NCBI RefSeq assembly: GCF_964213995.1
Contig: NC_135830.1
Span: 1,674,001-1,738,000 of the forward strand
Source of the DNA: Mustelus asterias
Lineage: Eukaryota
Length of the DNA: 64,000 nucleotides
Reading direction: 5' to 3'
Shown here: positions 9,453 through 53,041 of the stretch, in pieces
Layout of the letters: each line of letters opens with the position of its first letter
How positions within the stretch are numbered: the stretch's first letter is position 1
The notes under the pieces: generated by a model
What the model saw: the letters and a program-made list of their open reading frames with translations, nothing else
What the model was told of the DNA's origin: nothing
Database searches by the model: none
Program-made: the position numbers and the translations under genes

Positions 9453-9627
9453 GGACCAAATAAATGAGGCCTGGCAGGTGCAAAGCGTATCAGTGGGCTC
9501 TCATTTTGTAGATGGTCACCATAATTCAGTTAGATTTAGGGTAGTTATTGGAAAATGAAAAGTGTGAACCAGAATATGATTTCTTCAATGGGGAAAAGCG
9601 AATTTTACCACAAGGGTCACTTAACTC
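9453..9627 (+). repeat. 175-bp segment of an old CR1 fragment duplicated at 13306-13480
   Basis: Direct alignment by eye: 4 mismatches in 175 bp. Confidence 0.9.
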
Positions 9628-12767: not shown

Positions 12768-12840
12768 TTCAGTTGTTAACACTCTCAGCTCTAAGTCAGA
12801 ACAAAGTGAATTTCAGTCCCATTGCTGGACATCGGCACCT
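12768..12840 (+). mobile_element. Ancient DeuSINE/SacSINE1-like tRNA head
   Basis: ACACTCTCAGCTCTAAGTCAGAA...TTTCAGTCCCA, homologous to 35603-35732 (minus). Confidence 0.45.
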
Positions 12841-12859
12841 CAATCGTCAGCAAAGATGC

Positions 12860-13110
12860 TCCTGGCGCAGGCGCAGTAGTGGACTCTGAACTGAATATGC
12901 CGCTCACTTGACCATGGAAAATTGGGAATTGAACATGCACATTGCAGTCTCATGGAGTGCATGCGGAGCACACATCGCACTGCCCCATGCGCAGCGTGGG
13001 TGCTGCTCTTTCTGGGAAGCGGTGAACTGGAGTCCGGATTGGAGAGAAATTGTGCAATTTTGGAGGGAAAAGGAGGTGGCAGACCGGGTGCGGCGGCTTT
13101 ATTGATCATT
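12860..13110 (+). promoter_or_regulatory. Putative CpG-rich promoter of zinc-finger gene A with NRF1-like sites
   Basis: GCGCAGGCGCA at 12865-12875, further GTGCATGCG and CATGCGCA variants, locally raised CpG, upstream of ZNF linker exons. Confidence 0.5.
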
Positions 13111-13305
13111 CAGTAGAGACATAAAACCAAAAATAAGAGCACATAGATCTCAGTATTGCATTAAACCCGGGTAGTAATTGCAGGGCCGCCTTTACGCCCC
13201 CAGACCCCAGTTACCGGCCGCCATCTGCATGGGGAGATAAAGAGCAGGGCGCTCTCATCCTGCTCCAGGCATCAGGAAGAGAGAATGTTGTCAAATTCTA
13301 TCTCG

Positions 13306-13480
13306 GGACCAAATAAATGAGCCCTGGCAGGTGCAAAACGTATCAGTGGGCTCTCATTTTGTACATGGTCACCATAATTCAGTTAGATTTAGGGTAGTTA
13401 TTGGAAAATGAAAAGGGTGAACCAGAATATGATTTCTTCAATGGGGAAAAGCGAATTTTACCACAAGGGTCACTTAACTC
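13306..13480 (+). repeat. Recent copy of 9453-9627 inserted in the ZNF 5' module
   Basis: 171/175 identity; flanks match the uninterrupted module at 14930-15010. Confidence 0.88.
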
Positions 13481-13639
13481 CTTTTCTCGGGGATTAGAAG
13501 GGGACATATACAAAACTGAAACTAAAAGACATGTTTGTCTCTGAATTTCTATTTTGGACTTATAACAGACTAATTAAACTAATTTAATTAATTCTGTTAG
13601 TTAATTTCTTTAATTAACAGAACAGAATTAACGAATTAA

Positions 13640-14705
13640 CTAAGAGAAAGCAAAGACTGGGGGTAAATGGTTGTTTTTTCTAGTTGCCGATCGGTGACTA
13701 GTGGTGTGCCTCATGGATCAGTGTTGGGACCACAATTGTTTACAATTTACATAGAAGATTTGGAGTTGGGGACCAAGTGCAGTGTATCAAAATTCGCAGA
13801 AAATACAAAGATAAGTGCAGAGCAAAGTGTGCAAAGGGAGCTGAAATTCTGCAAAGGAATATAGTTAGTGTAAGTGAGTGGGGAAGGGTCTGGCAGATGG
13901 AGTATAATGTTGGCAAATGTGGGGTCATTCATTTCAGTAAAAATAACGTCAAAATGGACTATTATTTAAATGGTAAAAAATTGCAGCATGCTGTTGTGCA
14001 GAGGGACCTGGGTGTCCTTGTGCAGGAATCTCAAGGAGTTGGTTTGCAGGTGTAGCAGGTAATTAAGAAGGCAAATGGAGTTTTGTCCTTCATTGCTGGA
14101 GTTGTGGAGTTTAAAATAATGAGATTATGTTGTGAGGCCACACCTGGAGTACTGTGTACAGTTTTGGTCTGCTTACTTGAGAAGCGATATACTGGCACTG
14201 GAATGGGTACAGAGGACATTCACTAGGTTGATTCCGGAGTTGAGAGGATTGGCTTATGAGGAGAGACTGTGTTGACTGGGGCTGCAATTATTGGAATTCA
14301 GAAGAATGAGGTGAGATCTTACAGAAACAAATAAATTATGATGGGAATAGATAAGATACAAGCAGATAAGTTGTTTCCACTGGAAAGTAAAACTAGAACT
14401 AGGCGGCATGGCCTCAAAATAAAGGGGAACAGATTTCGAACTGAGCTGAGGAGGAACATCTTCTCACAAAGGGTTGTGAATCTGGGGAATTCCCTGCCCA
14501 GTGAAGCAGTTGAGGCTACCTCATTGAATGTTTTTTAAGGCAAGGATAGATAAACTTGCGAACATTAAAGGAATTAGGGGTTGTGGCGAGCAGACGGGTA
14601 AGTAGAGCTGAGTCCATGAAAAGATCAGCTACGATCTTGTTGAATGCCGGAGCAAATTCGAGGGGCCAAATGGCCTGCTGTTGCTCCTAGTTCTTGTGTT
14701 CTTAT
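13640..14705 (+). mobile_element. 5'-truncated CR1 LINE (RT C-terminal half plus 3' UTR), disrupted
   Basis: VTSGVPHGSVLGP, KFAE(D), RPHLEYC, RRNIFSQRVVNL motifs across frameshifts; CR1 tail. Confidence 0.9.
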
Positions 14706-15239
14706 TATCTCACAGAATATTTGAAGAATAGGATTTAAAGGTGGAAATCTCAGACCAAACACGAGGTCAAAACCTGAGCAGAGTCACTCGATTCATGAGA
14801 ACCTGAATGTAAATGTGTCTGGAAGATGATTCAAACATCTGTGAGACTGGAAATAGGGTGGGGAAGCCATTGGGTAACGACCGTCACCTTTATCGGCGCA
14901 ATAGACAGCAGGACGCATGCGGGCTCATTCTGCTCCAGGAATGTTGTGAATTTCTATCCTGGACTCTCACTCATGGCTTTTGAAATCTGCTGTTCCAGGG
15001 GATTAGAAGGGGAGCATTCTTACAAACAAAACTCAAAACAACAGAAATGCATGTCTATTAATTTTTACCCTGGACTGACAGTAATGGTTTTATTGCAGGA
15101 GTTTTGATGATCAGGATTAAAAGATTCTAATCCCAAACCAAACTTCAGATCCAAACCGGACAGAGTCTCACGATTCATCAGATCCCGAATGTCAGTGCGT
15201 CTGTGGAAAAAAGATTCAAACATCTGTGTGTGACTGGAA

Positions 15240-15700
15240 TTAGAGAAGAGCAATGTCATGGAGGGATTTAAATAGAAGGATAAGATTGATATATTGAGAT
15301 GCTGTTTAATGGGGAGCCTGTGTAGGTCAATGACAGGGTGATAGGTGAGTGAAAGGGATTCAGTGAAGAGAACAGGGGTTTGGACAAACCCGGTGCGGAT
15401 AAGTGAGGACAGAGTGATGGGTGAATGAATAGATAATGACTGGAGAAGTTCAGAAGCACAAGGCAGGGCCATGTCGATTTGTGCAACTGTGATGGAAACC
15501 CGTTCTTGGAGATGACACAGAAAAGTCGCCAGAAGGTGAGGTAGTGATGAAATATTTCATTGTAGTTGTGAACAGTTTGGTTCAACCTCAGACTGTTGTG
15601 AGGTAGAGTGATGGATTTGGTCTCTATGGGGTGGAGTTTGTAGCAGGGTTTGAAGACAATGACTTCAGTCTTCACAATTTTTAAATGGAGGAAATCTCCA
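15240..15700 (-). mobile_element. Old L2-type LINE fragment
   Basis: Minus ORFs with KTEVIVF..., LRLNQTVHN and HPVIDLHRLPIKQ, resembling the L2 RT C-terminus. Confidence 0.6.
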
Positions 15701-15704
15701 TTAA

Positions 15705-16016
15705 AGTAGAATAAAGTTTATTGATTTATTAGTCACAAGTAGGCTTACATTCACACTGCAATTAAGTTACTGTGAAAATCCCGAGTCGCACACACAGGCA
15801 CCTGTTCGGGCACACTGCGGGGAAGTTTAGCATGGCCAATTCATCTAATTTGCATATCTTTGGACAGTGGGAAGAAACCTGACCACCCGGAGAAAACCCA
15901 TTCAGAAACACGAAGTATGTTCAAACTCCACAGACAGTGACCCAAGCCTGGAATCGAACCCAGCTCCCTGGTGCTGTGAGGCAGCAGTGCTAACCACTGT
16001 GCAACCATGCCGCCCG
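15705..16016 (-). mobile_element. V-SINE variant with a non-CR1 tail
   Basis: Same head and V domain as HE1 but a different 3' tail ending ...GTGACTAATAAA...AATAAACTTT. Confidence 0.75.
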
Positions 16017-16194
16017 TTAGCCCAGTGCTGGATGTCAGACAAGTCAAGATGGTGGGTGACTTGGAGGTGGTGGTGTACACATCCACCTGCTACCCCGATC
16101 CTGATGCTGAAGTTTCAGGGTTTGGAAGGTTCTGTCAAATTTCTCATCAGGTTGTGAACCTGATATTAATCCATCACTTTCACCCCCTCACTTT

Positions 16195-17240
16195 CAGAGA
16201 GTGGGTATAGATGGGTCTTTTTCTAAATGGAGGTCGGTCACCAGTGGTGTGCCCCAGGGATCTGTTCTGGGACCCTTGCTGTTTGTCATTTTCATAAATG
16301 ACCTGGATGAGGAAGTGGAGGGATGGGTTCGTAAGTTTGCCGACGACACGAATGTTGGTGGGGTTGTGGATAGTCTGGAGGGATGTCAGAAGTTACAGAG
16401 GGACATAGATAGGATGCAAGACTGGGCAGACAAGTGGCAGATGGACTTCAACCCAGATAAATGCGTCGTGGCCCACTTTGGTAGGACAAATGGGATGAAG
16501 GAGTACAATATAAGGGGAAAGACTCTTGGTACGGTAGAGGATCAGAAGGACCTTGGCGTCCGGGTCCATAGGACTCTGAAATCGGCCCTGCAGGTGGAGG
16601 AGGTGGTTAAGAAGGCGTATGGTATGCTGGCCTTTATCAATAGAGGGATTGAGTTTCGCAGTCTGGGGATAATGATGCAGCTATATAAGACCCTCGTCAG
16701 ACCCCACTTGGAGTACTGTGCTCAGTTCTGGTCGCCTCACTATAGGAAGGATGTGGAAAAGATTGAAAGGGTGCAGAGGAGATTTACAAGGATCTTGCCT
16801 GTATTGAGTGGCATGCCTTATGAGGATAGGCTGAGGGAGCTCGGTCTTTTCTCCTTGGAGAGACGAAGGATGAGAGGAGACCTAATAGAGGTGTATAAGA
16901 TGTTGAGAGGCATAGATCGGGTGGACTCTCAGAGGCTTTTTCCCAGGGTGGAAATGTCTGCTACGAGAGGACACAGTTCTAAGGTACTGGGGGGTAGGGA
17001 CAGGGGAGATGTTAGGGGTAAGTTTTTCACACAGAGGATGGTGGGCGAGTGGAATCGGCTGCCGTCAGGGGTGGTGGAGGCGAACTGAATAGGGTCTTGT
17101 AAGAGACTCCTGGATGAGTACATGGAGCTTAATAGGATGGAGTGTTATAGGTAGGCCTAGAAGGTAGGGATGTGTTCGGCACAACTTGTGGGCCGAAGGG
17201 CCTGTTTGTGCTGTAGTTTTTCTATGTTTCTATGTTTCTA
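16195..17240 (+). mobile_element. 5'-truncated, relatively young CR1 LINE (295-aa open RT fragment)
   Basis: ORF 16201-17088 with SGVPQGSVLGP, KFADD, RPHLEYC; tail (TTTCTATG)n shared with the HE1 SINE tail. Confidence 0.93.
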
Positions 17241-17513
17241 CTACACTCGTATTGCTGTTTCTCTTTCTGTCGTTGTCACACTTTCTTGATATCTGCTCTG
17301 ATCGAGGACAGATCGGGTGAGAAATTGCCTTCCCTGAAGGACATTAGTGAACCAGTTGTGTTTTACAACAATCGAGAAGCTTTCATGGTCACTTTTTTTC
17401 TTGTGTCGGTCACAGAGATTTCCAGATGAATTCAGCTCAATTTCACAACCTGCCTTTGTGTTTCTATGGGTTTTCCCTCACTCCTTTTTTTCTGTTTTAA
17501 ATCACTTTCACAG

Positions 17514-18828
<1,315 letters not shown>

Positions 18829-21800
18829 CTGTCATGCTTGGATTTTGTTGTCAATCAAATCCAGGACTGAACCATGTTCAAAGGAGGCTTTTTCTGCTGA
18901 GGTGAATAAAATCCAATTTAGTTATGTATGTTAATGTTCAACTTTGTGTTACATAGACACAGTGTTGTGTCTTTTTAAGCTCACAAGAAAATGCAACAAT
19001 GGGGAATTATGTCCAGGGCTGAATAATTTTCATTGGGGGCACATTCTGCTGATGTTACTAAACTCATGCCCGTAATAGGTGTTAATATTCTGGATAACAA
19101 TCAAGCAAGTCACCTTTGTGTGAAACACACTGTGCTGGCTCTTTTTAATATTTCTAAGACAAGTTAGCTCCTTTTGACGGGCTCTCCCTCTCCCCTGTCT
19201 CCTCCATCAACCAGTGTAAGGAGTTCATGGAGCTTCTTTGTCACTAAGGTTTGGATAATCCCATCAGCTGTCTGGGCTGCTTAAAACCCTTCCACGAGAC
19301 CACCAGGATAAATTGTCTGTAATGTTCTCCTGCCTTCAGTCTGAACTCGGGTTTTGCTGCAGCCTCCCTCTCATATCCTGTCATGCTCTCTCCGTGCTCA
19401 TCTTGTCAAAGATAGCACCAGACTGATTGGGAATGTAAATTGTGAGGAGAATGCAAGGATGATTCAAGAGGCCATAGACAGTCTGAATGAATGTGGAGAG
19501 TCTGTGAGAAAGTGCAAACGTCGTAATTAGTAGAGATCGTTAATAGTGATGAACATAAATGGATTGTTTGGATCAGGCTTTTGTTACAAAATGTAATCTT
19601 GATAGAATTGACAATGAAAAGGTAAATGGAAAGAATTATTCCTGCATATTTGAAGTGATGATTAATCACTTGTTTATGTTCAGCTGAGTGAACTTACCCC
19701 TCCGCCTCTCTGAAATGAGCAGAGAACTAATCCATCCTTTCCGCGACAGGAAATTTGTGTTATAAGACTTGCAGTAATCTTAAGATATAGAGTCAAAACT
19801 TAACAGAGAAGGGAGTTACATAAGGTAGGATGAGAGTGTGTGTATAATGCTGGGAATCATTATACGGCCATAATGCATTCTAATTAAAATGTGCTACATG
19901 GACCAACCATGAAACTGTATTAAATGCCAGACACGCTAAAAGGGAGTGCCCGCCTATAATACCAAATTGACAAATCCATATAATTGAGATAAGAAAATGC
20001 TCGGGAAAGTGTTTGTTACAAACTGTTCAAAATTAAAGTGATAAGATTTATTGAATTTACTTCTGTTTTGAATTGAATTACAGTTTGGAAAACAGCAGAA
20101 TAAAAGCGAATGTTAATCAACGTTCAGTATTTTTACATGTTTTATTTTCATCCCAGTTTAAGATTTTAAGTCTGAATCAATGTTGGAAGCTTCCATGTGT
20201 ATCTGTGTGTTTAACAACGTGATTGCGTGAATGTTTTGTTGGTGTTCGCTTTAATGTTTTAATGTTGAGGAAGAAGTGAAACCTTGGGCGGACTATGTGC
20301 TTTTTTCCTTGTCTTGAAGTTAAAATAAACATATAGTCGAGAAGTTAAAAAATACTATGTAATTTTGTGAAAATTGGAGTTCTCTTAGTTCACCAGTTGG
20401 CCACTAGTTCAGAAGGTACCTGTTACAATTGCGAGACACCAGGCCACTTCGCCCGAGATTGTAGGGCTCCGAAGGGTGGTAGTGAAGTCTGCGAAACGGC
20501 AGATAATGAAGTAATAGGGGAAGCTGCAGGTTCTCTCATTAAAGTGTACATGTCAAAGAAAAAAACATCAATAGAGAGGATGCAAAAGGATGGCTGGGAT
20601 ACGTCCCAGACCATACAGCAGCAGAAAACGTGGATAGATAAAGAAAAGAGAAACAAGACAAAGAAGATAGGAATAGTATTAATACATCAGCTTCGTGCAC
20701 TAATTGAGCAAGGTCAAGAAAAAATTAGAGAGTTAGAATCCAGAATAAGAGAATTGGAGAAACGAAACCAAGTCTTAGAAGTAAAACAATGAAGAGGGGA
20801 AACTGCTCCTCTACCTCCTAATGAGTCCACGCAAGGACCAACCGCTCCTCCAAAGGAGTGGGAAGCGCTGGAATACAACTTAGCGCCAGTAACCCGGAGG
20901 GGAACTGGTGCGCGGCCAAAAGCTAATTATAAACCCTTCACCCAGTGTAAAACAGAGATTCAGAGGGGAGATTCAGAGAGTAGAAGGGAATGCCCCACTT
21001 ATTGGAGTAGAAATTCCACAACAAAACAATTAAGAGGGGGAAGAAGGATCAGTGTATGTGAGAATCAAAGGAAAGATAAAGAGGTATCTGGCTTGCCAAT
21101 GTTGTTCCAAAATCCCAATACGGGTGAACAGGAAGAGGAGTGGTGGCCTCGACCTAGTGTAGATAATCACCAGAAATCTAAGGTAGCTGACATTGCCCTG
21201 TTAAATATGACAGACACCAGCTCCGGTGCCACTGCAAAGACAGAAGGAACTCAAATCAGGCTCACTTGGTTAATTTGGAGCGTGATAGTAAAGGGTTAAA
21301 CACAGACAGGCTGTAAGTTTCTGTCTCTCTCTCTCGACAAGGGAAAGAGAGAGAGAGAGGAGTGAAAGTGTGCGATCCGGAGCCACCTGTGGTGGAATAG
21401 GGTGTAGCAGATCAAAGTTTAATAAACTATTCTCCCCAGTTGATACTGTACAATTGGGCATTACATTACAGCGGAAGAGTTGTGAGGAGAGTTAACCATT
21501 TAAGAGAAATAATTAATGATGCGTGCATCTTGAGCTTAAGTTCAAGAAAAGAGAAACCAGACAAAGAAGATAGGAAGAGTACTAATACATCAGTTAACTG
21601 GACTAATTGAGTAAGGTCGAGAAAAAAATAGAGAGTTAGAATCCAAATAAGAGAATTGGAGAAACGAAACCAAGTCTTAGAAGAAAATCAATGGAGAAAG
21701 CATCATAACAGGTGGGACCGATGTAGGTCCACTAAAATATAAAATCAGGAGATATGTTTTGGAACTAAGCACCCAACTGAAAGGGATGCGGAAATTGGTA

Positions 21801-22155
21801 AAAGACAATTTGTAGATAAGTGACGCAGAGAGAGAGAGCTTGAAATGCTCCCTGACATCCTTTCGAAAACACTGCCTGACAAATCAGGGATTGTACTAAA
21901 ATGGGATGGGCCGTATGAAGTTATAATTAGTAAGATACCTTTGCCTGTATAGACATAAGGGGGAAATGTCATTAAACTCAGTTGAAAGAATATGTTGAAA
22001 CTAATTGGGAAATGATGCGATATACTCCCATTGCAGGAATGTACAGACAACGACTGACCTCCAAGCAAGCTGGACAGGTGCCCGGTGTTGCGCGTGGGCG
22101 GTATAGCCTTTGGACCATTGTATAACGGTGGCGCAGGTTATTAGTAAGTGCTAAG

Positions 22156-23576
22156 ATGCTTTTCATGCTACTTCTCACGACCCTGGCCCTGTTAGCTATA
22201 GTGGGCAAATATCGATGGAATTATCAGAATTTAGGGATGGGACACAGTGAACATCTCTGTAATGATGACTCTGTCTATTGTATGAACACCTTTGTGTCTA
22301 TGTCTTAACTGTATGCATCACAATCGAATCTGAGCAAGTGCTGGGTCTGTTCACACATTCCCATGCACGGAGGAAAGGGAGGGATTCCTTTATTCCCTAT
22401 CCCTTTGTCAGCTCCTGAAGTAATTTAAATCAGAATGGAACCCAGAAAGGGTCAAGGCAACTGACATTCAAAACCCCATTGGGTACCACCATGCAGGGTA
22501 CGTTTAATATTAGTAACAATGATATTATGTTAAAGTTAGGGGGCGGAGGGTGCATTTTATCGTCCTTTAAGATGCATTCGCAACCCAGGTACGACAGATC
22601 AGATTCCCCACCCTACTTCTTTGTGAAAAATAAACAGAGGGGATCCATCTGCCTGATAAGAAATGGAACCATAACTGTTGGCCGTAGCTACTGTATAGAG
22701 CAGATTGATATCACGAATGATGCTTGGGCCATGATACAGGTCACAGTCCAGTGCCCCAAAGCCACCGTCCCGGTTAGCCTCTCCTCCGCTTATGTAAGCG
22801 AGATGACTGCATATAATGGTACCTATTTTGTCTGTGGAAGCAATGCCTATCCGTGGCTTCCCTGTAATTGGACAGGATCTTGTTATTTGGCATATGTGGT
22901 GCCCTATATTCACCATTACACTGATTTACGGGACCACCCCGAGATACACCTGCTTAGCGCTAAGCGAGCCATTAGAGAGACAGATAGGTTCTTCATGATA
23001 GTCTACCCATTTTATGGGACAGCAAAGGCAGCACAAGAACTTATACGGATGGCCTCGAACCTAGAGATAATTGCGAACGAGACTAAGGATGGGTTCGAGG
23101 AGGTGAGCACGGCCATCTCTGAAATATCAGCAGAGGTCGTAGCTATTCGGACTGTGGCCTTACAGAACCGATTGGCACTCGATTATGTGCTAGCCTCCCA
23201 AGATGGAACATGTGCCATTGTTGGCTCGGAATGCTGTACGTATATTCCCGATGCTTCGGAGAATATAACTCGCTTAGCAGATCATATTAAACACGTGGCG
23301 AAAACAACACAGGATGAAGGGAACCAATATCACAATTATAACCTTCCGGGATGGCTGGGGCAATGATTCGGGTCGTGGGGTGCGTACCTGGTGCATGGAT
23401 TGATTGTATTAATTGTAATTGTAATTACTTGCTGTGTTTGTATGGCATTATTGAACGCCCGTTGCAAAACAGTGACAGCGCGGATTATGCCGAGTGCAAG
23501 TGTACAGGCAGAGGGGGCAGGCCTCCCGACAAAGGAGCTAGAGCTAGGCCCATTCGCCGATAACATGTGGTTCTGA
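22156..23576 (+). pseudogene. env: Gamma-type retroviral envelope gene, disrupted
   Basis: Signal peptide MLFMLLLTTLALLAIVG, CWVC at 22339, basic cleavage site ..SAKR, fusion peptide, ISD LQNRLALDYVL, CX6CC (CAIVGSECC), TM helix; stops at 22306, 22426 and 23364, frameshift near 22430-22480. Confidence 0.9.
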
Positions 23577-23629
23577 ATTGGTCATGGGGCCATGTATGTA
23601 CCACCTGGCACCCGACCATCAGGGGGGAG

Positions 23630-24302
23630 TGAAGTCGGGAATGGGGCAATGAACTTCAATACTCGAAGTGTCAAAGTGACCTCTGTGATATTTAGAGCTT
23701 GTGTGCGAAATATTGTAGAACTCATGTTTATGTTAGGGTGCTTTCTTGCTCATGTTTCCAGGACAGATACGAGCACAGCTGTCCTTTGTTTTTCTGGTGA
23801 AGAATGTGGCTAATCCGCCATTTTGTATTCTTTAATTATGTACTGCTGTGTAACAATGGGAGCCTATATCTAGGTCTTTTGTGACGTATAATGAAGCCTT
23901 CACATATATTATCTGTACCGATATACATTATACAAGTACCTACGAACGTATATAAATTGTTGTTCGCCAATTAACTTGTTTAAGCGAAGACTGTGACTTT
24001 GTACATTAGTAAGATACCCCACCTGTGCTCACAGAGAAGAACAACACTTATGGCCTTGGGATAACCGTGAAGAGAAAGCCACGGCAGCAAGGTTCTCACA
24101 GGAAGATGTTCAATCGCCTGAGAACCTGTGTGAGCCTGGGAACCTGCGTACGTGCAAGGTGGGCTATAAATGTATGTGTTTAGCATGCATTTGCTGAGAC
24201 ATCTGAGGCCATGTTAGGCATCGGACGGTCTCCCACAATTGTGCAAATGAACCAAAGTATTTTGACCTACGAATAGACTCAGAGGTATCTTTACATGCGA
24301 CA
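23630..24302 (+). repeat. Putative 3' LTR of ERV1
   Basis: Starts TG immediately after the PPT, TATA (CTATAAAT) near 24164, probable end ...GCGACA; no second copy in the window. Confidence 0.6.
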
Positions 24303-24519
24303 CAATCAAATGAAGGAAAATTGCGGCAATTTTATGTGTGATGTTCTCACTCGGGTATTGTGTAAATGCTGCTCAGATGTTGGAGCAGCATATCATCTAC
24401 CTACATTTTCCTGAGCCTGTGCTCGGTGTATTGGGAGTTTTGATCCGTGATGGAGTGCCTTGTGTCCCAGAGATGGGCAGTAACCCACTGATTAAAGCAG
24501 CTGTCGCCGCTTTCTGCTG

Positions 24520-24795
24520 ATACACCACCATTTTCACACTAGAGAAAATATTCACCTGCACTTTTTAAAGAAGGAGATGCTGGTTCATCCAACTTACTGA
24601 GACACCAGCGTAGTAACACTGGGGAGAGACCATTCACATGCTCAGAGTATGCGAAGGGAGTCACTCAGTTATCTCATCTGCTGACAGATGTTCTCAATGT
24701 GCGATTGAATTCAGGCAATCATCTGAGCTCACTGTACAACAGCGAGTTAACACAGTGGCGAGACTGTGCACCAGTTCTGACTGTGGGAAGATTAT
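24520..24795 (+). pseudogene. Degenerate C2H2 zinc-finger remnant (~3 fingers)
   Basis: CACTGGGGAGAGACCATTCACATGCTCAGAGTATGCGAAGGGA and similar linkers. Confidence 0.65.
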
Positions 24796-24799
24796 AAGA

Positions 24800-27070: not shown

Positions 27071-27149
27071 TCCACACGGTCCCAAGGTTCGGAGCAGTAG
27101 ATGGAAGCTGTGACTTGCCCATGAGAGTAACTGAGGAATGAGAAATTAA

Positions 27150-28370
27150 ATAATAATAAGGAGAACAGGTGGATGCACTGTATTCAGATTTCCAAAATTT
27201 ATTTGGTTTGTTGCCACATCGGAGGTTATTGCAATAAATGAAAGCTCATGGTGTTGGAGGATAATGTATTGGCATGGGTAGAGGACTGGCTAGCTAACAT
27301 TGGCCATGCTAACAGGCAACATCACCATAAATAGGCTTTTCTCTATTTGGCAAGATGTAGGAATGGTGTACTACGGGATTCAGTGCTGCTTAAAATTAAC
27401 TGGATCATTGTTTATAATTGATATAAATGACTTGCATGAATGGAGCGAATGTGTGGTTGCTAAATTGGCTTGTGGCACAAAGATATGTTGGATAGTGAGA
27501 TATGAAGAGGGACAAGAAGGCTACAAAGTGGTGCAAATAGGTTAGGTGAGAGGGCAAAGATCTGACAAATCGAATATCATGATGAAAAGTTTGAAAATGT
27601 CCGTTTTGGCTGGAAAAATAGAAGGGACGCATGTTATTTAAATGGTGAGAGGCTACAGAGCTCCGAGATGCGGAGAAATCTGGTTATCACAGTGCATGAA
27701 TCACAGAGCACGAGTTTGCAGGTGCAGAAAATGGGAAAACGAATAGTTTATTATTGTATTCATCTCCTCTTGCAATAAACAAGTGTAGGGAGGTTTTACT
27801 TCAGTTTTACAGGCCATTGGTGGGACCTCATATGGAGTGCTGTATACAGTATTGGTCGCCTTATTTAAGGAAATGTGTAAATACATTGGAAGCAGTTCAG
27901 AGAAAGTTTACCGAAATAATAACTGGAATGTGTGTGTTATTTTATGAGGAAAGGTTGGAAAGTCTACGCTTGTACTCGCTCGCACGAGAGTTTAGAAGAG
28001 TAAGAGTTGACTTGATTAAAACATAGAAGTTCAAGAGGGGTCTTGATGAGGTAGATCTGCAAAGGATGTTTGCTCTTGTAGGAAAATCTAGAACGAGTGG
28101 TCACTGTTAAAAATAAGGTGCTGCTCATTTAGGACAGGAATACGGTGAATTTTGTTCTCAGAGGGTTTGGAGTCTTTGGATCTCGTTTACTTGAAAGGCA
28201 GCTGAAGAGGTGTCTTTGAATATTTTGTATGGTAGAGGCAGATAGATTCCTGGAAAGGTTATCGGGGTAGACTGGAGGTTGAAATAATATCAACCATGAA
28301 CATATTAAAAGGGCAGAACAGGTTCAAGGGGCCGAATGATTACTCCTGCTCCGAATGCATATGGTCACAT
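27150..28370 (+). mobile_element. Old CR1 LINE 3' portion
   Basis: LVGPHMECCIQYWSPYLRK and other RT C-terminal motifs; CR1 3' UTR. Confidence 0.8.
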
Positions 28371-28679
28371 GTACAATCTGGAGTTAGAAAGGAGGAAATA
28401 TCCAAAAATGAACAAGTCGGTAACAGGACATCAATGAATCTTTTATCATGGGCAAAATAAGGTGCGGATTGTATGTGCCTGAAACAATCTTTCTTTAGAC
28501 AGATATCAATATATTAACCTACGGCCCAGTTACAGAGTTGTTAACAGTGTTAGAAGCAAAGCCAACTCACAAACAAATCAGAACCATCAGAATAAAGGGA
28601 AGGTGTTTGTGGATGTGATTTCGATCAGAATTCTGTCCGAGTCATCTGTGGAGCTACGGGTCTCTCAGTAAGGTGGACG

Positions 28680-29282
28680 AACGACAAACTTCCTTCCCGC
28701 AAGTGGAGCAGGTGAACAGCCTCTTCCGAGTTTTAACTCCTGAGTGTTTCAGACAGTTGAATGGCTAAATAAGTCCCTTCCCACACTCAGAGATGAACAA
28801 AAGCCCCTGCCGGGGTGAACTTGCTGATGTCTGAGCAGGCGGGCTGATCGGGTGAATCCCTTCCCACTCTCAGAACAAGTGAACGGCTTCTCCTTAGTAT
28901 GAACTCGCTGGTGTCTCAGCAGATGGGAAGACTGAGTGAATTGCTTCCCACACTCCGAGCAGATAAACATTCCCTCCCCCGTAAACTTTGATGAACTTTC
29001 TGCAGACGAGATGAACGTGCGAATCCCTTCCCACACAAGTAGCAGGTGAACGGACTCTCTCCACTGCGACTCCGCTGATCAGTTTCTCGCTCAGATGGGA
29101 AATTGAATTCCTTCTCTCTATCGTCACATTTCCAGCCCACTTTCCCGCTCTGATCAGTCCTTTTCCCTTCCATGTTCAAAATCCGATGATATTCAGGCAT
29201 TGATCAATTGGGAGATTCTGTCAGATCCTGATGTGATGTTTGTGTTGAATTTTTCAACTACAAATCCTCCCCTTCTAATACC
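28680..29282 (-). pseudogene. C2H2 zinc-finger gene B, main exon (~5-6 fingers, disrupted)
   Basis: Same acceptor and N-terminal PEYHRILNMEGK leader as gene A; finger repeats over two frames. Confidence 0.85.
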
Positions 29283-29663
29283 CTGTGAAATTGTTTAAAA
29301 GAGAAAAAAAAGAGTGAGAGAGAACCCACAAAAGCACAAAGGCACGTTGTGAAATTGAGCTGAAAGAATCTGGTAATTTGTGGGGCTGGCACTAGGAAAA
29401 TGTGACCATGAAAGCTCCTGGATTGTTGTAAAAACCCAAATGGCTCATGAATGCCCTTCAGGGAAGGGAACCTGCTACCCAGCCTGGCCTTCATAACAGG
29501 TGAGAGAGTTGGAGATGCAGAGGGTTAGGGAGAGAGATCTTATATACATTTACCTCGACTGGAACTCTAACGGAATTTCCCAAGCCCCAAACCTCCTCCA
29601 GCACCGAGAAGGGCCAGGATAGAAGATGTATGTGAACACCATCACACTCACGTTCCCCTCCAT

Positions 29664-29972
29664 GTGGCAGCATGGTTGCACAGTGATTATGTATGCTGCC
29701 TCACAGCGCCAGTGGCCTAGTTTCAATACCGGCCACGGGTGACTGTGTATAATTTGCACGTTCTCTTCGTGTGAGTTTCCTCCAGGTGCTTCAGTTTCCT
29801 CCCACAGCCCAGAGATATTCGGGTTAGGTTAATTGGACATACGGCATTTCCACCTAATATCAGGGAAATAATCAGGGTAAATATGCAGTATTAAGGGGAT
29901 ACGGCCTGTTTGGGATTGTTGACGATGTAGGCTCAGTGGCCTCCTTCTGCCCTGTAGGGATCCTATGATTCT
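29664..29972 (+). mobile_element. Older HE1-type V-SINE
   Basis: Head, V domain and tail motifs. Confidence 0.75.
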
Positions 29973-30399
29973 AAAAACACACTGTTCTGACTTGCCTGAC
30001 ATCAAGGTCTGGATGAATAGAAAATTTCTGTATTTAACTATTTGGAAGACTGAAGCCATTGACTTCAATCCCTGCTCCAAACTCCACTCCTGAGGACTGA
30101 CTCCATTCCTCTCCCTGACAGCTGTCTGAATCTGAACCAGGCTGTTCATAATCATGGTGAAATATTTCATCTCAGCCACATATCCACATCATCACCAAGA
30201 CTCTCTCTTTCCAACTTAGTAACATTGCCTGACTCCATCCCAATCCCAGCTCATCTAAACAGAAAGATGATGGACGTAGAGCAAATCGAATCCATTCGGG
30301 ATGGGGCAGCTCCTGTGGCTGGCAACTTAAGAGATTCATCTGCAAGTTGCAGGTTGCTGAATCTCTCATCGATTTCTTTCTAACCTCTGTTTGTTGATG

Positions 30400-32030
30400 T
30401 GTAATGACTTGATTAGGGAAATTAAGGTAAAGGAACCCTTAGGGAACTGTGACCCCAAAGATAGAATTTATCCTGCAGTTTGAGAGGGAGATGCTGGAAT
30501 CAGATATAACGGTATTACAATTAAATAAAGGTAACCACAAAGACGAGAGGGAGGATCTGGCCAGAGTTGATTGGAAAGGAAACCCGGCAGGGAAGACAGT
30601 GGAAGAGCAATGGCAGCAGTTTTTTGGGGGTTATTCGGGAGGCACAACAGAATTTTATCCCAAGGAGGAGGAAACATGCTATGTGGAGGAGGAGGCATCC
30701 AAAGCTGACGAGGGAAGTCAAGGACAGCATAAAAGCAATGACTCCCAAGTCCCTTTGTGTTTCTGATTTCCTAAGCATTTTCCCATTTAGAAAATAGTCT
30801 AAGCCTCGAGGCCTCCTTCCAAAGTGCAGAACCTCACAAATCTTACACATTGTATTCTATCTGTCACTTCTTTGCCCACTCTCCTAACCTGTCCAATTCA
30901 TTCTGCAGCCACCCTTCTTCCTCAATACTACCTGTCCCTCTACATATCTTTCTATCATTTGCAAACTTAGCCTTCAATTCCTTCCTCCAAATCGTTAATG
31001 TATATTGTGAGAAGTTGTGGTCCCAGCACTGTCCCCTGAGGCACACCACTAGTCATCAGCTGCCATCCTGAGAAAGACCCCTTAATTCCCACTCTGTGAC
31101 TTCTGCCAGTCAACCCAATCCTCTATCCATTCCAGGATCTTACACTTAACACCATGGACTCTTAACTGATTCAACAGTCTCCTATGTGGCGCCTTGTAAA
31201 AGGCCTTCTGAAAATCTAAATAAATCACGTCCACTGGTTCTCCTTTAGCTAACTTCCTTGTTACCTCCTCAAAGAGCTCCAACAGTTTTGTCAGACATGA
31301 CCTCCCCTTGACAAAGCCGTGCTGACTCAGTCCCACTTTATCATGCATTTCTAAGGACTGTGCGATCTCATCTTTAATAATGGAATCTAAAATCTTGCCA
31401 AAGACCGAAGTCAGGCTAACCAGCCTATAATTTCGCATCTGCTGCCTCTCTCCCTTTTTGAAGAGCGGTGTTGCATTCGCTTCCTCCCAGTCCTCTGGTA
31501 CTCTCCCTGCCTCCAGTGATTCCTGAAAGACCACCTCCAATGCCTCCACAATTTCCTCAGTATCTCTTTTAGAACCCTGGGGTGTAGTCCATCCGGTCCA
31601 GGTTAGTTATCCACCTTCAGGCCTTTCAGTTTCCCCAGAACCTCCTCCTTAGTGATGGTCACGACATCATCTGTGCCCCCTGACTCTCCTGGAGCCCTTG
31701 AATCCCACTGGTATCTTCCACCGTGAAGACTGATGCAAAGTAACTATTCAGTTCCTCTGCCATTGCTTTATTTCCTACTATTACTGCTCCAGCCTCATTT
31801 TCCAGTGGTCCAATTGCTATTTTTTACCTCTTACCTTTTATGTATTGAAAAAAAAACTCTTCCTAAATTATTTTTATATTATTAGCTTGCTTACACTCAT
31901 ATCTTCTCCTCTCTCCTCTCCCCCCCCCCCCCACCCCCCCTTATTGCTTTTTCAGTTGTCCTCTGCTCGCTGTTAAATGCTTCCCGATCCTCTGGCTTCC
32001 CAGTAATCCTTGCCACTTTGTATGCTTTCT
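30400..32030. mobile_element. CR1 LINE with internal inversion (plus 30400-30737, minus 30738-32030)
   Basis: Plus piece ends ...GACAGCATAAAAGCAA and minus piece begins (at ~32030) GAGAAAGCATACAAAG, contiguous in CR1 ORF2; minus ORF with YRLVSLTSV, QHGFVKGRSC, VDVIYLDFQKAF. Confidence 0.82.
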
Positions 32031-32372
32031 CATTTACATGATTTCTTCATGGTGTGGGTGTATCTTTTTTTGTATTTCCAAGTTTATTCGTTGAGCATGG
32101 TTCCTTCCCGCTGTGAATGGTGTGATTTTTATGGGCTGTGTAACAGGTTAAAGCTCTTTCCCCAGTCAGTTCACTGGGACACTTTCAGTCAAGTGTGTCT
32201 GTGTGTCCCGGTGCTTTTCATTCACAGTGATGTTTGAAATCTTTTCCCTCAGACAAAACAGACAAATATTCTTCCTGCCATTTTCAAAGTCCAATGAATT
32301 TGGTTACACTGTTAGATCATGAAGATTCGTTTTACTTACCCAACTACAGATCATCCTCTTCGAATATCCTGT
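32030..32372 (-). pseudogene. Truncated 5' part of another zinc-finger exon
   Basis: Acceptor plus linker module and degenerate first fingers (AAGAGCTTTAACCTGTTACACAGCC...CACACCATGAAGAAATCATGTAAATG), homologous to 38640-38778. Confidence 0.55.
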
Positions 32373-33379
32373 AAAAAGTTTAAATAGAATTTTAAAGAAT
32401 ATACAGAATAGCAACAGGTCCTTTTGTCGAACTAGTCTCTGCTGGTGCTTATTCCTCAAGCTCTTCCCCCCTCCCATTCTAGCTACCTCAGCTCAATATT
32501 TGAGCATTTAATTCTATTCAATATTATCTCACGTACTCATCTAGTTTCGTTCTGAACGTATCTCAGTTAGTTCTTACCTCAACCACTACCTGTGGTAGTG
32601 AGTTCCACATTCTAATCACTCTTTGAGTAAACACACATCTCTTTATTTTCCAGTTGAATTGATCAGTAAATATCTTGTATTTCTGACCCCTGGATTTAGA
32701 TTCACCCACAAGCAAAAACATTCTCTCCACAGCTGCAAGGTCACACATGGCAGACTGGCCTGGAAAATGAAAGTTTGCGGGATCCAAGGAGCAGTTACGT
32801 GTTGGACGTAAAATTGGCTCAATGTCAGGAAGTAATGAATAATTATTTTTGTGACTGGAAGGCTGTTTCCATCGGCAGCGGAGGGAGGGTTGGGGGGTTG
32901 TTCATGCAATTCAGGACTGCAATCTACTCTCCTCATTTGTATTATTGATTTGGACTTGATGTAGGGACATGAATAAAATATTTGCAGATTACACAAAAAT
33001 GTCGGAGTGCTTGATAGTGGGCAAAAAAGTTGGACAGAAAACAAGGCAAAGGATTACATGACAAATGGTAGGATATTAAGAATTGTGGAGGAATAGAGGG
33101 ATATTCGAGTGCATGTGTACAGAGGTTAGCGGGACAGGTCGAGAAGATAATTAAGGATGCATGGAGGATAATTACCTCCATTACCTGGAGCACATATTAT
33201 ATGTGCAGTGAGGTTCTGCTGGAACTGTATAAAATACGCACAAGGTCTAGCTAGAGTACAGGAAGGATGGGATTGCATTTGAGAGGTTAAACAGGAGATT
33301 TAAAATGTGCCAGAAATGGGGAATTTTAATCAGATAGATTGTTGTTGTTTTCTTTTGAACAATATATATACACACACAC

Positions 33380-34336
33380 ACAATATACATTAACGATTTG
33401 GAGGAAGGAACAGAAGGCACTGTTGCCAAGTTTGCAGATGATACAAAGACATTAAGAGGGACAGATAGTATTGAGGAAGCATGGGGGCTTGAGAAGGGCT
33501 TGGACGTGTTAGGAGAGTGGGCAAAGAAGTGGTAGATGGAATACAAGATGGAAAATTGTGAGGTTATACACTTTGGAAGGAGGAATGGAGGCATCGAATA
33601 TTTCGAAATGGGAAAATACTTAGGAAATCAGAAACACAAATGGATTTAGGAGTCATTGTTCAAGATTCTCATACGGTTAACGTGTAGGTTCATTCAGCAG
33701 TTAGAAAGGCAAATGCAATGTTATCATTCATGTCGAGAGGGCTAGAATTCAAGAACAGGATGTACTTCTGAGGATGCATAAGGCTCCAGTCAGACCCCAT
33801 TTGGAGTATTGTGAGCAGTTTTTGGCCCCATATCTAAGGAAGGATGCGCTGGCATTAGAACGGGTCCAGAGAAGGTTCACAACAATGATCGCTCGAATGA
33901 AGAGCTTGTCATATGAGGAACGGCTGAGAACTCTGGGTCTGTTCTCGTTGGAGTTTAGAAGGATGAGCGGGGATCTTATTGAAACTTTCAGGATACTGCG
34001 AGGCCTGAATAGCCTGGACGTGGAGAGGATGTTTCCACTGGCGGGAAAAAAAACTAGAACCAGAGGGCATAACCTCGGGCTTAAGGGACGACCCTTTAAA
34101 ACAGAGATGAGGAGGAATATCTTCAGCCAGAGAGTGGTAAATCTGTGGAACTCTTTGCCACAGAACGCTGTGGAGGCCAGGTCATTGAGTGTCTTTAAGA
34201 CAGATGTAGATGAGTTCTTGATTAACAAGGGGATCAGGGGTTATGGGGAAAAGGCAGGAGAATTGGGTGAGAAAAATAATCAACCCTGATTGAATGGCGG
34301 AGCAGACTCGATGGGCCGAGTGGCCTAATTTTGCTC
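33380..34336 (+). mobile_element. 5'-truncated CR1 LINE (same subfamily as 30400-32030 and 59700-60748)
   Basis: KFADD, VRPHLEYCEQF, RRNIFSQRVVNLWNSLP; 3' UTR. Confidence 0.9.
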
Positions 34337-35279
34337 CTAAGTCTTATGGCCTTATAGGTGTCTGAAGGGAGAAATGTATCCAATTGAGGTGCTTCAGTAG
34401 AGCGAATAAGAAGATGGGTACATAATGGGAGATTTGGATTTAGTGGAAGAAGTAGGAGGCTGAAGTGAATTTGAGGACATTTCCTTTACATTCAGAGGGT
34501 GGTGGTGATATGTGACCCACGGCCAGGAAGGGTGGCAGATAATGAAATCCTCATGACATTTAAGAGTTTGGATCCGCAATTTAAGTGACCTAACGTACAA
34601 GGTTATGGACTAGCCTCTGGGTACTGGGAATTGATGGGTTCGCGGCTAGGTGGCCATTGTAAATACAACAGACAAAATGAAATATTTCAGGAGTAGCAGA
34701 AGTTCATGAAAAAGGGGGACAGTCACTCTCAATGGTCTACCTACTTTCGCTGCCTAGACTGCTAATGTGGTCTTAGCAAGCAAGTTACTTTGCCTACACT
34801 GTAGATGCAATTACACCACATGAACTGTAGTGGTTCAAGAAGGCAGCTCAGCATCACCTTCCTAAGTGCAACTAGGTATGCACAATAAATGCTGGTCAAG
34901 GCAGTGACACCCACATCCTGCAAATTGTTTTGTTTTAAATGGAACATTAAACATGAATATTCCTAATGATATCAGTGCAATTGAACTCAATTTTAACATG
35001 AAAAAGTGTCCCAGTCATTCTGATATCTGAAATTTTACCTCACGCAGGACAGACATCTCCCTTCCCACATTCAAAATTTGGAATGATATTCAACTCCTGA
35101 TGAATGTACTGAATCTCTCAGATCTGGACGTGATGATTAGTGAGAGTTTCCCGTCTGGAAATGCTGTTTTGCTAATTCGCACTAAAAGGAGTTTCCAGCA
35201 GGATTTTCACTCTCAGTCTAGAACATTTACACAATGTTTTTCTTCTGCTTCCTGTTCCTGGCTGGCTGTGTTGCACATT

Positions 35280-35600
35280 GTCCAGAAAGATAGCGATGCG
35301 CATGCGCCTTGCTGACTTCTTCCTTGAATGACAGCGACAGTTAAAGCCCTCCCGTCAGTGAAAAAGACAGGACGTTACTGGCGCCCGTCTAGTGACAAGT
35401 ATCGGATTGTAATCATAATTCATTGAACAGGCTTCGCATTAATCGTGAATCTGTGCACAAAAATGGCGGATGGTGCTACCCAGTATGCCCCGCGTGCGAG
35501 AAAATAGCCTATCTCTTTCAGATGGGTCGCAGTGCGCAGATAAGCCCCGCCTCCCAATGTCCAGCCGCGCGCTCCAGAAAGCGCGAATGGCCGAGCAGAG
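35280..35600 (-). promoter_or_regulatory. Putative CpG-rich promoter of zinc-finger gene B with NRF1 site
   Basis: TGCGCATGCGC at 35297-35307, GC box CCCCGCCTC, CpG-rich, upstream of minus-strand linker exons. Confidence 0.5.
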
Positions 35601-35602
35601 AT

Positions 35603-35732
35603 CCTCAGGGTGGGGCTCCCTCAGCGCTGCATCGGAATATCAGAATGGACTTAATGCTGATGTTTCTGGATGTGCATTTAAACCCACATCTTCTTGGCTC
35701 AGAGATGAGACTGTAACCGCTGAGCTACAACT
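35603..35732 (-). mobile_element. Ancient DeuSINE/SacSINE1-like head
   Basis: Minus: GTAGCTCAGCGGTTACAGTCTCATCTCTGAGCCAAGAAGATGTGGGTTTAAATG...GCAGCGCTGAGGGAG. Confidence 0.55.
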
Positions 35733-36449
35733 AACGCCTCATCATTACTCTCGATTTTTGCACCTTCAGTTACTATCATGGACAAGTATAAGATTTTAAC
35801 CCGGGACCTGAGCGTCCCGGAATCAAATACATCAGTGATTTCGAATATTTTTTTATTAACTGGCAACAGTTCAGAAATGGTACATAAACGAAATAGGCAA
35901 ATACAACACATATAACAGGTGAGATCGCGTTCCTGGTCCTGGATCAGGGGGGTTCTGATCTCTGTAGCTGGCGGCGGCAGTCTTCTCTGAACGGTTAACT
36001 GGTGTGAGCCAAATTGTGCGTGTTGGATCACTTCAAAATCTCTTTGCACTCGAGAGCCTACTTTAACCTTTGCAGACAGATAGGTTACGTGTGGGTCATG
36101 AGATCCAATCGTATCAGGGTTAGAAATGTCTTGCTTCAGGGCCTGTACTAGAGAAATGGCCTTGACAGAGATAACAGGTCTGTCCTGTGTTTGTCAGCTT
36201 GCAATATGCTATGGAAGGTTTCTTCATAAATGAAAGTGAGATATTTTGATAATACTCCACGAATTTCTGAAGATCTATTAAGGTTTTCAGACAAAGATTT
36301 CTGGCAGTCCGTTACTCGGATTCGACGTGTCTCCATTCCCATGACGAGGGGATTTCTGTACCAGGCGGGCATTTAGGATTTCTCTATTCTCCACCAATTC
36401 CCATTCCCTTTCTTTCTGGTGGATAATGGAGGTGTCACTGTGTGTAATA

Positions 36450-38778: not shown

Positions 38779-38779
38779 A

Positions 38780-39150
38780 CAAAGAACAAACAACAAAGAA
38801 AATTACAGCGCAGGAACAGGCCTTTCGCCCCTCCAAGCCTGCACTGACCACGCTGCCCGACAGAACTAAGAGCCCCTATCCTTCCGGGGACCTTATCCCT
38901 CTATTCCCAACCTATTCATGTATTTGTCAAGATGTGCCTTAAAAGTCACGATCGTATCTGCTTCCACTACCTTTCCCAGCAGCGAGTTGTAGGCACCCCC
39001 ACCCGCTGTGCTAAAAACTTGCCTCGCACATCTCCTTTAAAGCTTGCCCCTTGCACCTTAAACTATGCTCCCGAGTAATTGATTCTTCCACCCTGACATA
39101 AAGCTTCTGACCAACCATTCTGTCCATACCCCTCATAGTCTTGTAAACTT
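38780..39150 (-). mobile_element. CR1 LINE 3' fragment
   Basis: CR1 ORF-end and 3' UTR on the minus strand with an AACAAAG-type tail on the plus strand. Confidence 0.75.
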
Positions 39151-53034: not shown

Positions 53035-53041
53035 AATAGAC

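Follow-up and report, generated by a model that had tools for sequence, protein, structure and literature searches.

The closest described systems to the locus reported here are the KRAB-ZNF clusters of tetrapods and coelacanth and the FiNZ-ZNFs of cyprinids. KRAB-ZNF clusters resemble the shark family in their clustered duplication, single long finger exon, variable contact residues, and many relics; they differ by the KRAB domain, absent in the copies studied here and in 15 chondrichthyan relatives. KRAB families, PRDM9 excepted, are reported to be lost or absent in cartilaginous fishes (PMC8455134, PMC11603059). The FiNZ-ZNFs (Wells et al. 2023, PMC10547256) are, like the shark genes, a KRAB-less expansion in TE- and immune-gene-rich regions (in the window, the distance between A and an Ig V segment is 9 kb), and were proposed to repress TEs. 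They are found in cyprinids only and carry a conserved coding N-terminal peptide, whereas the shark leader looks non-coding and a finger is the sole conserved N-terminal protein feature. Repression was shown for FiNZ-ZNFs and is putative for the shark family. How KRAB-less tandem ZNF expansions act is given as an open question in PMC2604467 and PMC10547256.

We analysed a 64,000-nucleotide stretch of Mustelus asterias (the window), where a sequence-only reading had described two KRAB-less zinc-finger genes, A and B, amplified as a whole cassette. We consider it likely that A and B are old pseudogenes of a shark tandem C2H2 family, the remains of birth-and-death evolution. The features are collected in Table 1.

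Table 1. Features of units A, B, C, and D, with positions in the window.
Feature	Position	Strand	Basis
Decayed head of A resembling a tRNA-SINE; matches B 35723-35601 weakly	12769..12898	+	
A promoter-like stretch (NRF1-like 12865, 1 mismatch; o/e 0.59) and first-exon-like segment	12860..13305	+	
175-bp patch, 97.7% to 9453-9627, interrupting A module 1; short matches at both junctions	13306..13480	+	
A truncated leader module 1	13474..13526	+	profile E 0.01
LINE 3' fragment within A, presumably CR1/L2	13636..14705	+	
A leader modules 2-4, second first-exon-like copy (14872-14965), starts of decayed fingers	14691..15244	+	
A intron shared with B, split by independent SINE (about 15703-16016)	15537..16190	+	alignment
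Young LINE insertion, A only; open 325-codon frame with RVT_1	16194..17240	+	frame and domain search
End of the A intron shared with B (79.6%), containing an old repeat fragment, a pyrimidine tract, and the AG acceptor	17296..17514	+	
A leader module: MEGK from ATG 17624 (-3 A, +4 G); a frameshift and stops lie 5' of the ATG	17515..17662	+	
Finger array of A, 3 intact among 14 units; frame changes at 4 points, 5 stop codons	17663..18828	+	
3' region of A, of the family type: match to C, no significant match to B	18829..18915	+	
D stub: 4-5 decayed finger units, none intact, just past ERV remains	24520..24790	+	
B family 3' region, matches C	28507..28641	-	
Finger array of B, 1 intact among 6 units; frame changes at 2 points	28642..29134	-	
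B leader module, ATG 29173, two in-frame stops upstream	29135..29282	-	
B intron shared with A (29499-29283, 29665-29519, 30180-29986) and own SINE (about 29985-29666)	29283..30180	-	
B span: second module and C-type decayed-finger leader, ended by LINE (about 32020-30736)	32020..32388	-	
B span: SINE-like head (35723-35601), CpG-rich promoter, exact GCGCATGCGC 35298-35307, first-exon-like segment, module (35200-35054)	35054..35723	-	
C, third family member: ATG 38655 with only 4 codons before a stop; 8 intact among 18 units	37189..38790	-	

At the structural level, A (plus strand) and B (minus strand) are real inverted paralogues, as proposed, and the product of a DNA-level duplication: A 17296-18059 aligns to B 29499-28744 with 71% identity over 766 columns (E 4e-125). 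The duplication is placed at the DNA level because the two copies match in a collinear intron (~550 nt, 70-80% identity, insertions set aside) as well as in the last acceptor, leader, and first finger. Homology beyond the finger exon, on which the sequence-only reading had staked its claim, is present in the shared intron. The old SINE fragment reported before the last acceptor is common to both (A 17296-17514, B 29499-29283, 79.6%); its first half matches two old-repeat fragments elsewhere in the window (5409-5502, E 2e-4; 8781-8818, E 0.015), and within the window the last 115 nt of this shared intron occur in A and B only. Two more shared intron stretches are absent from the earlier description, A 15537-15702 with B 30180-30016 (75%) and A 16017-16190 with B 29665-29519.

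Amplification as a whole cassette was not supported: firm A-B homology is confined to the last ~2.5 kb, with weak or non-significant matches at the 5' ends. Since these ends keep a faint collinear likeness (22/1,237 windows score as well), the ancestral A/B unit may have been longer. The two spans had been taken as single cassettes, and they look instead like mosaics of several decayed units with independent intronic SINEs. The A SINE is 80-85% identical to seven of nine window copies and the B SINE 74-79% to seven of nine, and the two are only 73.7% identical to each other, below the identity of each to most other window copies. An ancestral SINE common to A and B was rejected, as the insertion points lie ~30 nt apart. 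Moreover, the unit at 32020-32388 in the B span is a separate relic, with a likeness to the leader of C that none of 500 shuffles equalled. In the A span, the first-exon-like segment 13209-13309 matches 14872-14965 (E 2.7e-4), and the 175-bp patch at 13306-13480 appears to be a templated insertion.

The arrays are built of 84-nt C2H2 units with TGEKP-type linkers, an architecture of the tandem C2H2 (poly-ZF) type. Finger number differs between copies as first described (14 units in A, 6 in B), but "genes" was a misnomer: with 3/14 and 1/6 units intact, both are pseudogenes and hence target nothing now. The first unit of A is the family head (W) finger with one Cys lost, and that of B has lost three of its four zinc ligands; overall, 15/56 ligands are lost in A, 9/24 in B, and, not counting the head finger, 10/68 in C. 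Starting at the family ATG, the frames run for 65 (A), 85 (B), and 4 (C) codons without reaching an intact finger, and open stretches elsewhere hold at most two (A) and one (B) intact fingers. From the ATG of A, B, or C, there is no open frame with at least five fingers, the criterion of Wells et al. The arrays C and D belong to the same family and were missed before; C (array at 38655-37189, a decayed-finger leader, and a LINE end in place of its 5' part) and the stub D are also pseudogenes.

The rapid array turnover that had been suggested was supported: fingers 2-6 of A and B differ at 39% of aligned nucleotides, compared to ~20% in intron and leader. Third codon positions differ more (0.47) than first and second ones (0.32-0.34), which indicates that the finger phase was constrained, whatever the time of death. 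For dating, the pedigree rate of the epaulette shark (7e-10 per bp per generation, PMC10587355) would give more than 1e8 generations for 10% decay. This is not credible, and we describe the copies as "old" only.

Contrary to the sequence-only reading, the family is shark-wide and not lineage-specific. Named models carrying both the leader and the first finger come from eight shark genera: Heterodontus, Cetorhinus, Carcharodon, Scyliorhinus, Stegostoma, Rhincodon, Mustelus, and Pristiophorus. A HMMER scan gave 22 matches to the B leader, and the 20 looked up were 18 named shark proteins from these eight genera and two unnamed ones; word-index protein searches with the A and Heterodontus leaders gave no match, a limit of their sensitivity, as the full scan matched. 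RefSeq/UniRef models, for example those of Cetorhinus (XP_078426599.1), Scyliorhinus (XP_038643830.1), Carcharodon (XP_041031843.1), and Heterodontus (XP_067892418.1), whose names are automatic only, present the leader, Met context, and head finger of A and B, with tandem modules in two models; A, B, and C differ from them in being broken. The membership marks of the shark tandem ZNF family, the leader module and the MEGK/MEKP start, are present in the window copies, and the head finger is recognisable, though decayed, at the array start of A, B, and C.

The lack of a standard effector domain was also supported. KRAB, SCAN, and BTB are absent from the shark models, as from the window copies, and from all 15 chondrichthyan relatives, whereas KRAB or SCAN appears in ~83 of the 105 other rows, a tally made by hand on a search dominated by generic fingers and used for this domain count alone. 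A Pfam search of nine read-through sense frames upstream of A, B, and C retrieved none of the three at E<=1, although a decayed exon in a pseudogene could escape it. The ESM Atlas returned generic C2H2 clusters only. ZNF ORFs range from 475 to 3,586 per genome across eight chondrichthyan assemblies (supplement of PMC10547256). Our literature search, motif string included, found no account of the family's anatomy in a coverage mostly outside subscription journals. Thus, the size of the family has been counted in publications, and its anatomy is apparently undescribed.

The alignments show that units were copied as genomic DNA with their introns; here, no less than the last ~2.5 kb was duplicated in inverted orientation. 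Once separated, A and B received SINE and LINE insertions of their own, their finger arrays came to differ in length and content, and both frames broke down. We infer that a live member would be transcribed from a CpG/NRF1-type promoter through at least one non-coding leader module, each repeating the last acceptor together with ~130 nt, and the conserved ATG (MEGK or MEKP) would open a fingers-only protein without a separate effector exon. For the C-type subfamily, upstream fingers may have decayed into 5' UTR, with a new ATG immediately 5' of the head finger. If the parallel with KRAB- and FiNZ-ZNFs holds, live members would read DNA, probably including retroelements, through their variable internal fingers, and family size would track TE load. 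A and B are themselves dead and inactive; their value is that of a readable record of a counted, apparently undescribed family. The leader module and intron end, both non-coding, are possible probes for all units. Caution is needed with automatic shark ZNF models, many of which fuse neighbouring units and translate non-coding parts.

C2H2 fingers can serve for protein contact, as in the dimerisation fingers of Ikaros. The head finger is a concrete effector candidate of this kind: it is acidic and atypical, with Tyr-Pro at -1/+1 and Glu at +5, and both subfamilies retain it at the N-terminus. Pro+1 with Glu+5 is found in 24 of 39 array heads, in 1 of 243 internal fingers, and in none of 2,188 fingers from 102 named non-chondrichthyan proteins. 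Heads were defined by array position in 27 of 35 shark models, leaving out eight (isoforms, near-duplicates, and two of other subfamilies) and seven unnamed records. It is a tentative idea, which we hold to be doubtful, that this finger is the hidden effector and binds a co-repressor or a family member instead of DNA, replacing KRAB or FiNZ. Motif heads are 77% identical across species compared to 59% among internal fingers, remains of the finger begin A, B, and C, and A and B retain it yet lack the finger preceding it in most relatives, the first of most shark models (three other models share their variant). In one ray model, both arrays open with an acidic Glu+5 finger. Single N-terminal C2H2 fingers of CGx-Phi type dimerise in Drosophila (PMC12774644), a likeness of position and fold, and unlike them the shark finger is contiguous with its array. 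However, the ends of tandem arrays are spared from homogenisation, and a first finger that stands apart is therefore to be expected even if it has no special function. The queries contained this finger, and Heterodontus supplies most arrays. The motif is missing from 15/39 heads, and such a finger is absent from a Pristiophorus gene. Across 13 models aligned without selection, the head finger is only 60% identical, below the 67% of the finger before it, and AlphaFold predicts an ordinary C2H2 fold for it. A PDB search with the A start and head finger gave nothing below E 0.38, and a two-copy complex prediction for the first two fingers of a Cetorhinus model scored 0.01, with no bearing either way.

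An effector role of the head finger is compatible with the pseudogene-family explanation and would supply its missing mechanism. With equal reserve, we suggest that the shark ZNF repertoires, the largest KRAB-free ones among the vertebrates sampled (up to 3,586 ORFs), may be fingers-only, with an invariant acidic first finger as effector. If true, one fold would be both variable DNA reader and constant co-repressor or dimer dock, the start codon arising right before the head finger would have kept it N-terminal, and this would be a third independent solution alongside KRAB and FiNZ.

The PEYHRILNMEGK leader was indeed found in both A and B (DNA 80% identical), and it is probably a non-coding 5' UTR. 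The repeated linker modules are real as well: a profile seeded from the two last acceptors only gave 10 non-seed matches, six of them at E<=0.01 (13474, 14691, 14962, and 15113 in A; 35200 and 32388 in B), and these six extra copies all lie within A or B in sense orientation. Less probable than the head-finger proposal, and in our view unlikely, is that a translated leader, or an unseen upstream exon, is the effector, as an acidic N-terminal peptide of ~45 residues analogous to FiNZ. Among 24 model matches to the B module, 19 are in frame leading to MEGK, a count that may be biased as the query favoured the first frame; the others, three in the second sense frame and two antisense, speak against a coding leader. 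The leader shares its acidic character with FiNZ (28 residues, Glu-rich, and without likeness to known domains; PMC10547256), KRAB-type effectors can be short, some models begin just 5' of the leader, and ZNFs are known to seem effector-less when an N-terminal exon has gone unannotated (PMC2604467). Against this, seven models switch frame within the module and contain its second-frame motif, and leader identity is 44% among 13 models, compared to 67% for the next finger. The N-termini upstream are unrelated, and AlphaFold gives no structure for residues 1-42 (pLDDT <50). Nine of 15 long chondrichthyan models begin at the downstream MEGK/MEKP-type Met, as far as exon structure and start codon can be taken from automatic models, of which many are chimeric. 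The leader frame of the C-type subfamily runs into a stop after one decayed finger.

The strong form of the sequence-only reading, a young lineage-specific cassette forming one unit from SINE head to 3' end and targeting neighbouring ERVs and LINEs, now seems very improbable. Its shared SINE head is weak: the pair A 12769-12898 and B 35723-35601, chosen beforehand, scores 117, a value reached by 0/500 shuffles and 1/2,540 real windows, and has an E of only 0.5-0.8 in a whole-window nhmmer search. The best competing match to the A head (51301, minus) lies within retroelement remains and was judged chance by eye. The B head carries what we take, by eye, to be A-box-like and B-box-like motifs. 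An Rfam search gave no match. DeuSINE architecture (SacSINE1) is a tRNA-like head followed by a Deu domain (PMC5499810). Among the promoter claims, the exact NRF1 motif stands for B, where it occurs once in the window (35298), and A has only sites with one (12865) or two mismatches; likewise, B holds the window's most CpG-rich 400 bp (o/e 0.91), and A reaches only 0.59. Promoter homology was not significant (108/1,254 real windows score as well). The 3' regions of A and B are not significantly alike in direct comparison (288/1,258 windows and 49/500 shuffles as good), and each matches C (7/1,256 windows as good for A, 0/1,256 for B). Modules and 3' region are family traits, and the arrays do turn over faster than their flanks. 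Nevertheless, both copies are dead and the family spans eight shark genera, contradicting the young cassette on age and activity. Contact codons (-1, 2, 3, 6) differ more than others (0.54 vs. 0.37, p 0.018) in these decayed copies, and equally in collinear and non-collinear finger pairs (0.54 vs. 0.54). Since the genomes are over 70% repeat-masked (PMC10468316), a position among ERVs and LINEs carries no weight as evidence of targets.

Least credible, and close to dismissal, is that the unit is a mobile element or a set of retrocopies: copies are many per genome and the surroundings TE-rich, but A and B have an intron in common, the shared part holds no transposase or polymerase of its own, and no inverted pair lies at the unit ends among the 25 longest of 80 listed, a search that old termini could escape, as these ends are decayed.

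The window holds four C2H2 zinc-finger arrays of the same shark family, all of them dead copies with lost frames: read from the family ATG (MEGK or MEKP), no frame contains an intact finger. The sequence-only reading had described the inverted pair A and B as genes; both arrays are present, but neither qualifies as a gene, and arrays C and D had been overlooked. Overall, its observation was confirmed in part and its interpretation was partly borne out.

Finger arrays in the window and their state of decay (frames counted from the family ATG)
Array	Fingers	Strand	Intact fingers	Frame (codons)	Zinc ligands lost
A	17663-18828	+	3/14	65	15/56
D	~24520-24790	+	none		
B	29134-28642	-	1/6	85	9/24
C	38641-37189	-	8/18	4	10/68

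A and B arose by inverted duplication at the DNA level, since their homology extends beyond the finger exon into the intron and the leader (the ~130 nt after the last intron acceptor), contrary to the outcome that would have refuted the first reading. Positions 17296-18059 of A and 29499-28744 of B presented 71% identity over the alignment, and the best conserved parts were the intron end (79.6%) and the leader (80.2%). Upstream, the intron flanks (15537-15702 and 16017-16190 in A, 30180-29986 and 29665-29519 in B) form a single collinear stretch of ~350 nt once their SINEs are set aside. These SINEs are independent insertions, because their insertion points lie ~30 nt apart and each is closer to most other copies in the window than to its counterpart. 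Only A carries a young LINE, whose RT frame spans 325 codons. The intron end also has an antisense match in a Heterodontus protein model (E 0.003), which suggests that the last acceptor is old.

A rough conversion gave a decay per site of ~12% for A and ~17% for B, overestimated since deletions were counted. This is of the same order as the A-B neutral divergence of 20-30%, and thus, for a large part of the interval since their split, both copies have been pseudogenes. Third codon positions differ most between the fingers of A and B (0.47 vs. 0.32-0.34), an excess left over from a time when this phase was coding. Divergence in fingers 2-6 is 39%, slightly below the 43% of non-collinear pairs and twice that of the intron and leader, and we conclude that the arrays were rebuilt. 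Between the two copies, contact codons have diverged further than the other codons (0.54 vs. 0.37); in these decayed copies the contact difference was equal in non-collinear pairs, and comparing collinear with non-collinear finger pairs gave no evidence of selection particular to the A-B pair at these codons.

The repeated linker modules of the first reading were confirmed. A profile of the two last acceptors retrieved six further modules, each a copy of acceptor plus leader, all in sense and all within the A and B spans. In A, a first-exon-like segment is present twice (13209-13309 and 14872-14965). In B, the middle module runs on into decayed fingers, which match the C leader (score reached by 0/500 shuffles) as well as Heterodontus and Pristiophorus models, and the unit ends at a LINE. 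Thus, each span is pieced together from several relic units. Tandem pairs of modules were also present in two RefSeq models (Cetorhinus and Scyliorhinus). Besides, the first module of A contains a 175-bp patch (13306-13480) copied at 97.7% from 9453-9627, 3.9 kb away, with a 4-5 nt match at each junction, which would fit a recent insertion by templated repair.

The remaining shared parts held up only partially. The SINE heads were above chance in direct alignment (score reached by 0/500 shuffles and 1/2,540 real windows) but weak in the window-wide search, where they were not significant (E 0.5-0.8). SacSINE1 is a widespread shark DeuSINE (PMC5499810). The promoters of A and B gave no significant alignment, with 108/1,254 windows scoring as well; for head, promoter and first exon jointly, 22/1,237 windows were as good. 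As for the NRF1 promoter of the first reading, the exact 10-mer, following what we take to be the NRF1-type consensus, occurs in B but not in A; of the nine sites with ≤2 mismatches, five fall within the 5′ portions of the two spans. Direct comparison of the A and B 3′ regions gave no significant match, but each matches C, so a family 3′ region does exist.

With the leader of B as query, we retrieved named proteins from eight shark genera; the family is shark-wide rather than lineage-specific. Between 475 and 3,586 ZNF ORFs were counted across eight chondrichthyan assemblies, in a study where TE repression was shown for cyprinid FiNZ-ZNFs (Wells et al., PMC10547256; preprint 10.1101/2022.11.29.518450); its main text, as searched, does not name sharks (PMC10547256). 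The literature searched gave no account of this family's anatomy. As a collection of dead copies from a family counted but undescribed, the locus is ordinary.

The absence of a recognisable effector domain was upheld. A Pfam search of nine sense frames, translated through their stops in the sequence upstream of A, B and C, found no KRAB, SCAN or BTB, and these domains were listed in 0/15 chondrichthyan rows vs. ~83/105 other rows (hand count), a comparison limited by the many models that are automatic fusions. KRAB-ZNFs are placed in coelacanth and tetrapods (PMC8835667), and KRAB families are described as missing from cartilaginous fishes, PRDM9 excepted (PMC8455134, PMC11603059). Effector-less poly-ZF models are reported as common and may conceal exons or new domains (PMC2604467).

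The value of the locus is a testable lead on the head finger, the sole constant protein feature, which opens the array or follows one conserved finger, and carries Tyr-Pro at -1/+1 and Glu at +5. Counts were made on 27/35 shark models, mostly Heterodontus and retrieved with queries that contained this finger. Pro+1 with Glu+5 occurs in 24 of 39 array heads (by position), in 1/243 internal fingers and in 0/2,188 fingers of 102 named non-chondrichthyan proteins. This concentration would fit a hidden effector of the family, as would the retention of the head finger in A and B, where the preceding finger is lost, and the new strong-context ATG directly before it in the C type, whose upstream fingers carry stops. 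We nevertheless regard that role as unlikely: an edge effect of tandem-array evolution also accounts for a distinct first unit, the motif is absent from 15/39 heads, and the finger itself is missing from one gene of Pristiophorus. In one ray model, an acidic finger starts both arrays.

A translated leader is more doubtful still: its frame runs into the fingers in 19/24 model matches and its peptide is acidic, as is FiNZ (the cyprinid Glu-rich N-terminal peptide), but 9/15 long models begin at the downstream MEGK/MEKP-type Met, 5/24 matches have it in the second sense frame or antisense (the second-frame motif recurs in 7 models), and identity among 13 models is 44% vs. 67% for the next finger. 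AlphaFold, moreover, predicts no structure for it. On these grounds the leader looks non-coding, and live members would encode a fingers-only protein. By analogy with KRAB- and FiNZ-ZNFs, that protein may have a TE-directed function. The long shark models named "zinc finger 850/721-like" are chimeras in which two or three adjacent units are joined across translated LINE, ERV and promoter sequence. Clustering is evident, since one 59-Mb contig carries several Heterodontus models and one 65-Mb contig carries four from Cetorhinus.

The surroundings comprise an Ig V segment, retroviral remains, a rhodopsin-type receptor gene and numerous SINEs and LINEs, which we take to be HE1-type and CR1/L2. 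An Ig heavy-type cluster piece (2980-3960, minus strand), 9 kb from array A, contains a leader and V segment (Pfam V-set E 8e-16), and D and J segments with signal sequences, judged by eye. Between A and B, ERV remains (~19700-24300, plus) retain a gag zinc knuckle (20349-20789), an env stretch of 315 open codons (22419-23363; TLV_coat E 5e-14) and a 155-bp internal duplicate (20641/21544, 90%); no pol was seen and blastn found no LTR pair. Upstream of array C, ~39500-41900 may be a Harbinger-like transposon remnant; the one open stretch searched there gave no Pfam match. The single-exon receptor (44634-45569, plus; 312 codons; 7tm_1 E 2e-25) is apparently open. A second LTR-retroelement (~46200-53100, minus), gag/pol/integrase-like by eye, is heavily broken, and both a LINE and a young SINE interrupt it. 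An old tandem duplication (60947-62041 and 62744-63773; period ~1.75 kb, 68-73% in three blocks) includes two open stretches without Pfam match. Finally, one family of short palindromic, MITE-like elements is represented at 414-611, 1102-1322 and 36448-36542 (self-complementarity 81-86%), and 54380-54450 consists of several tandem repeats of a young SINE's 5′ end.
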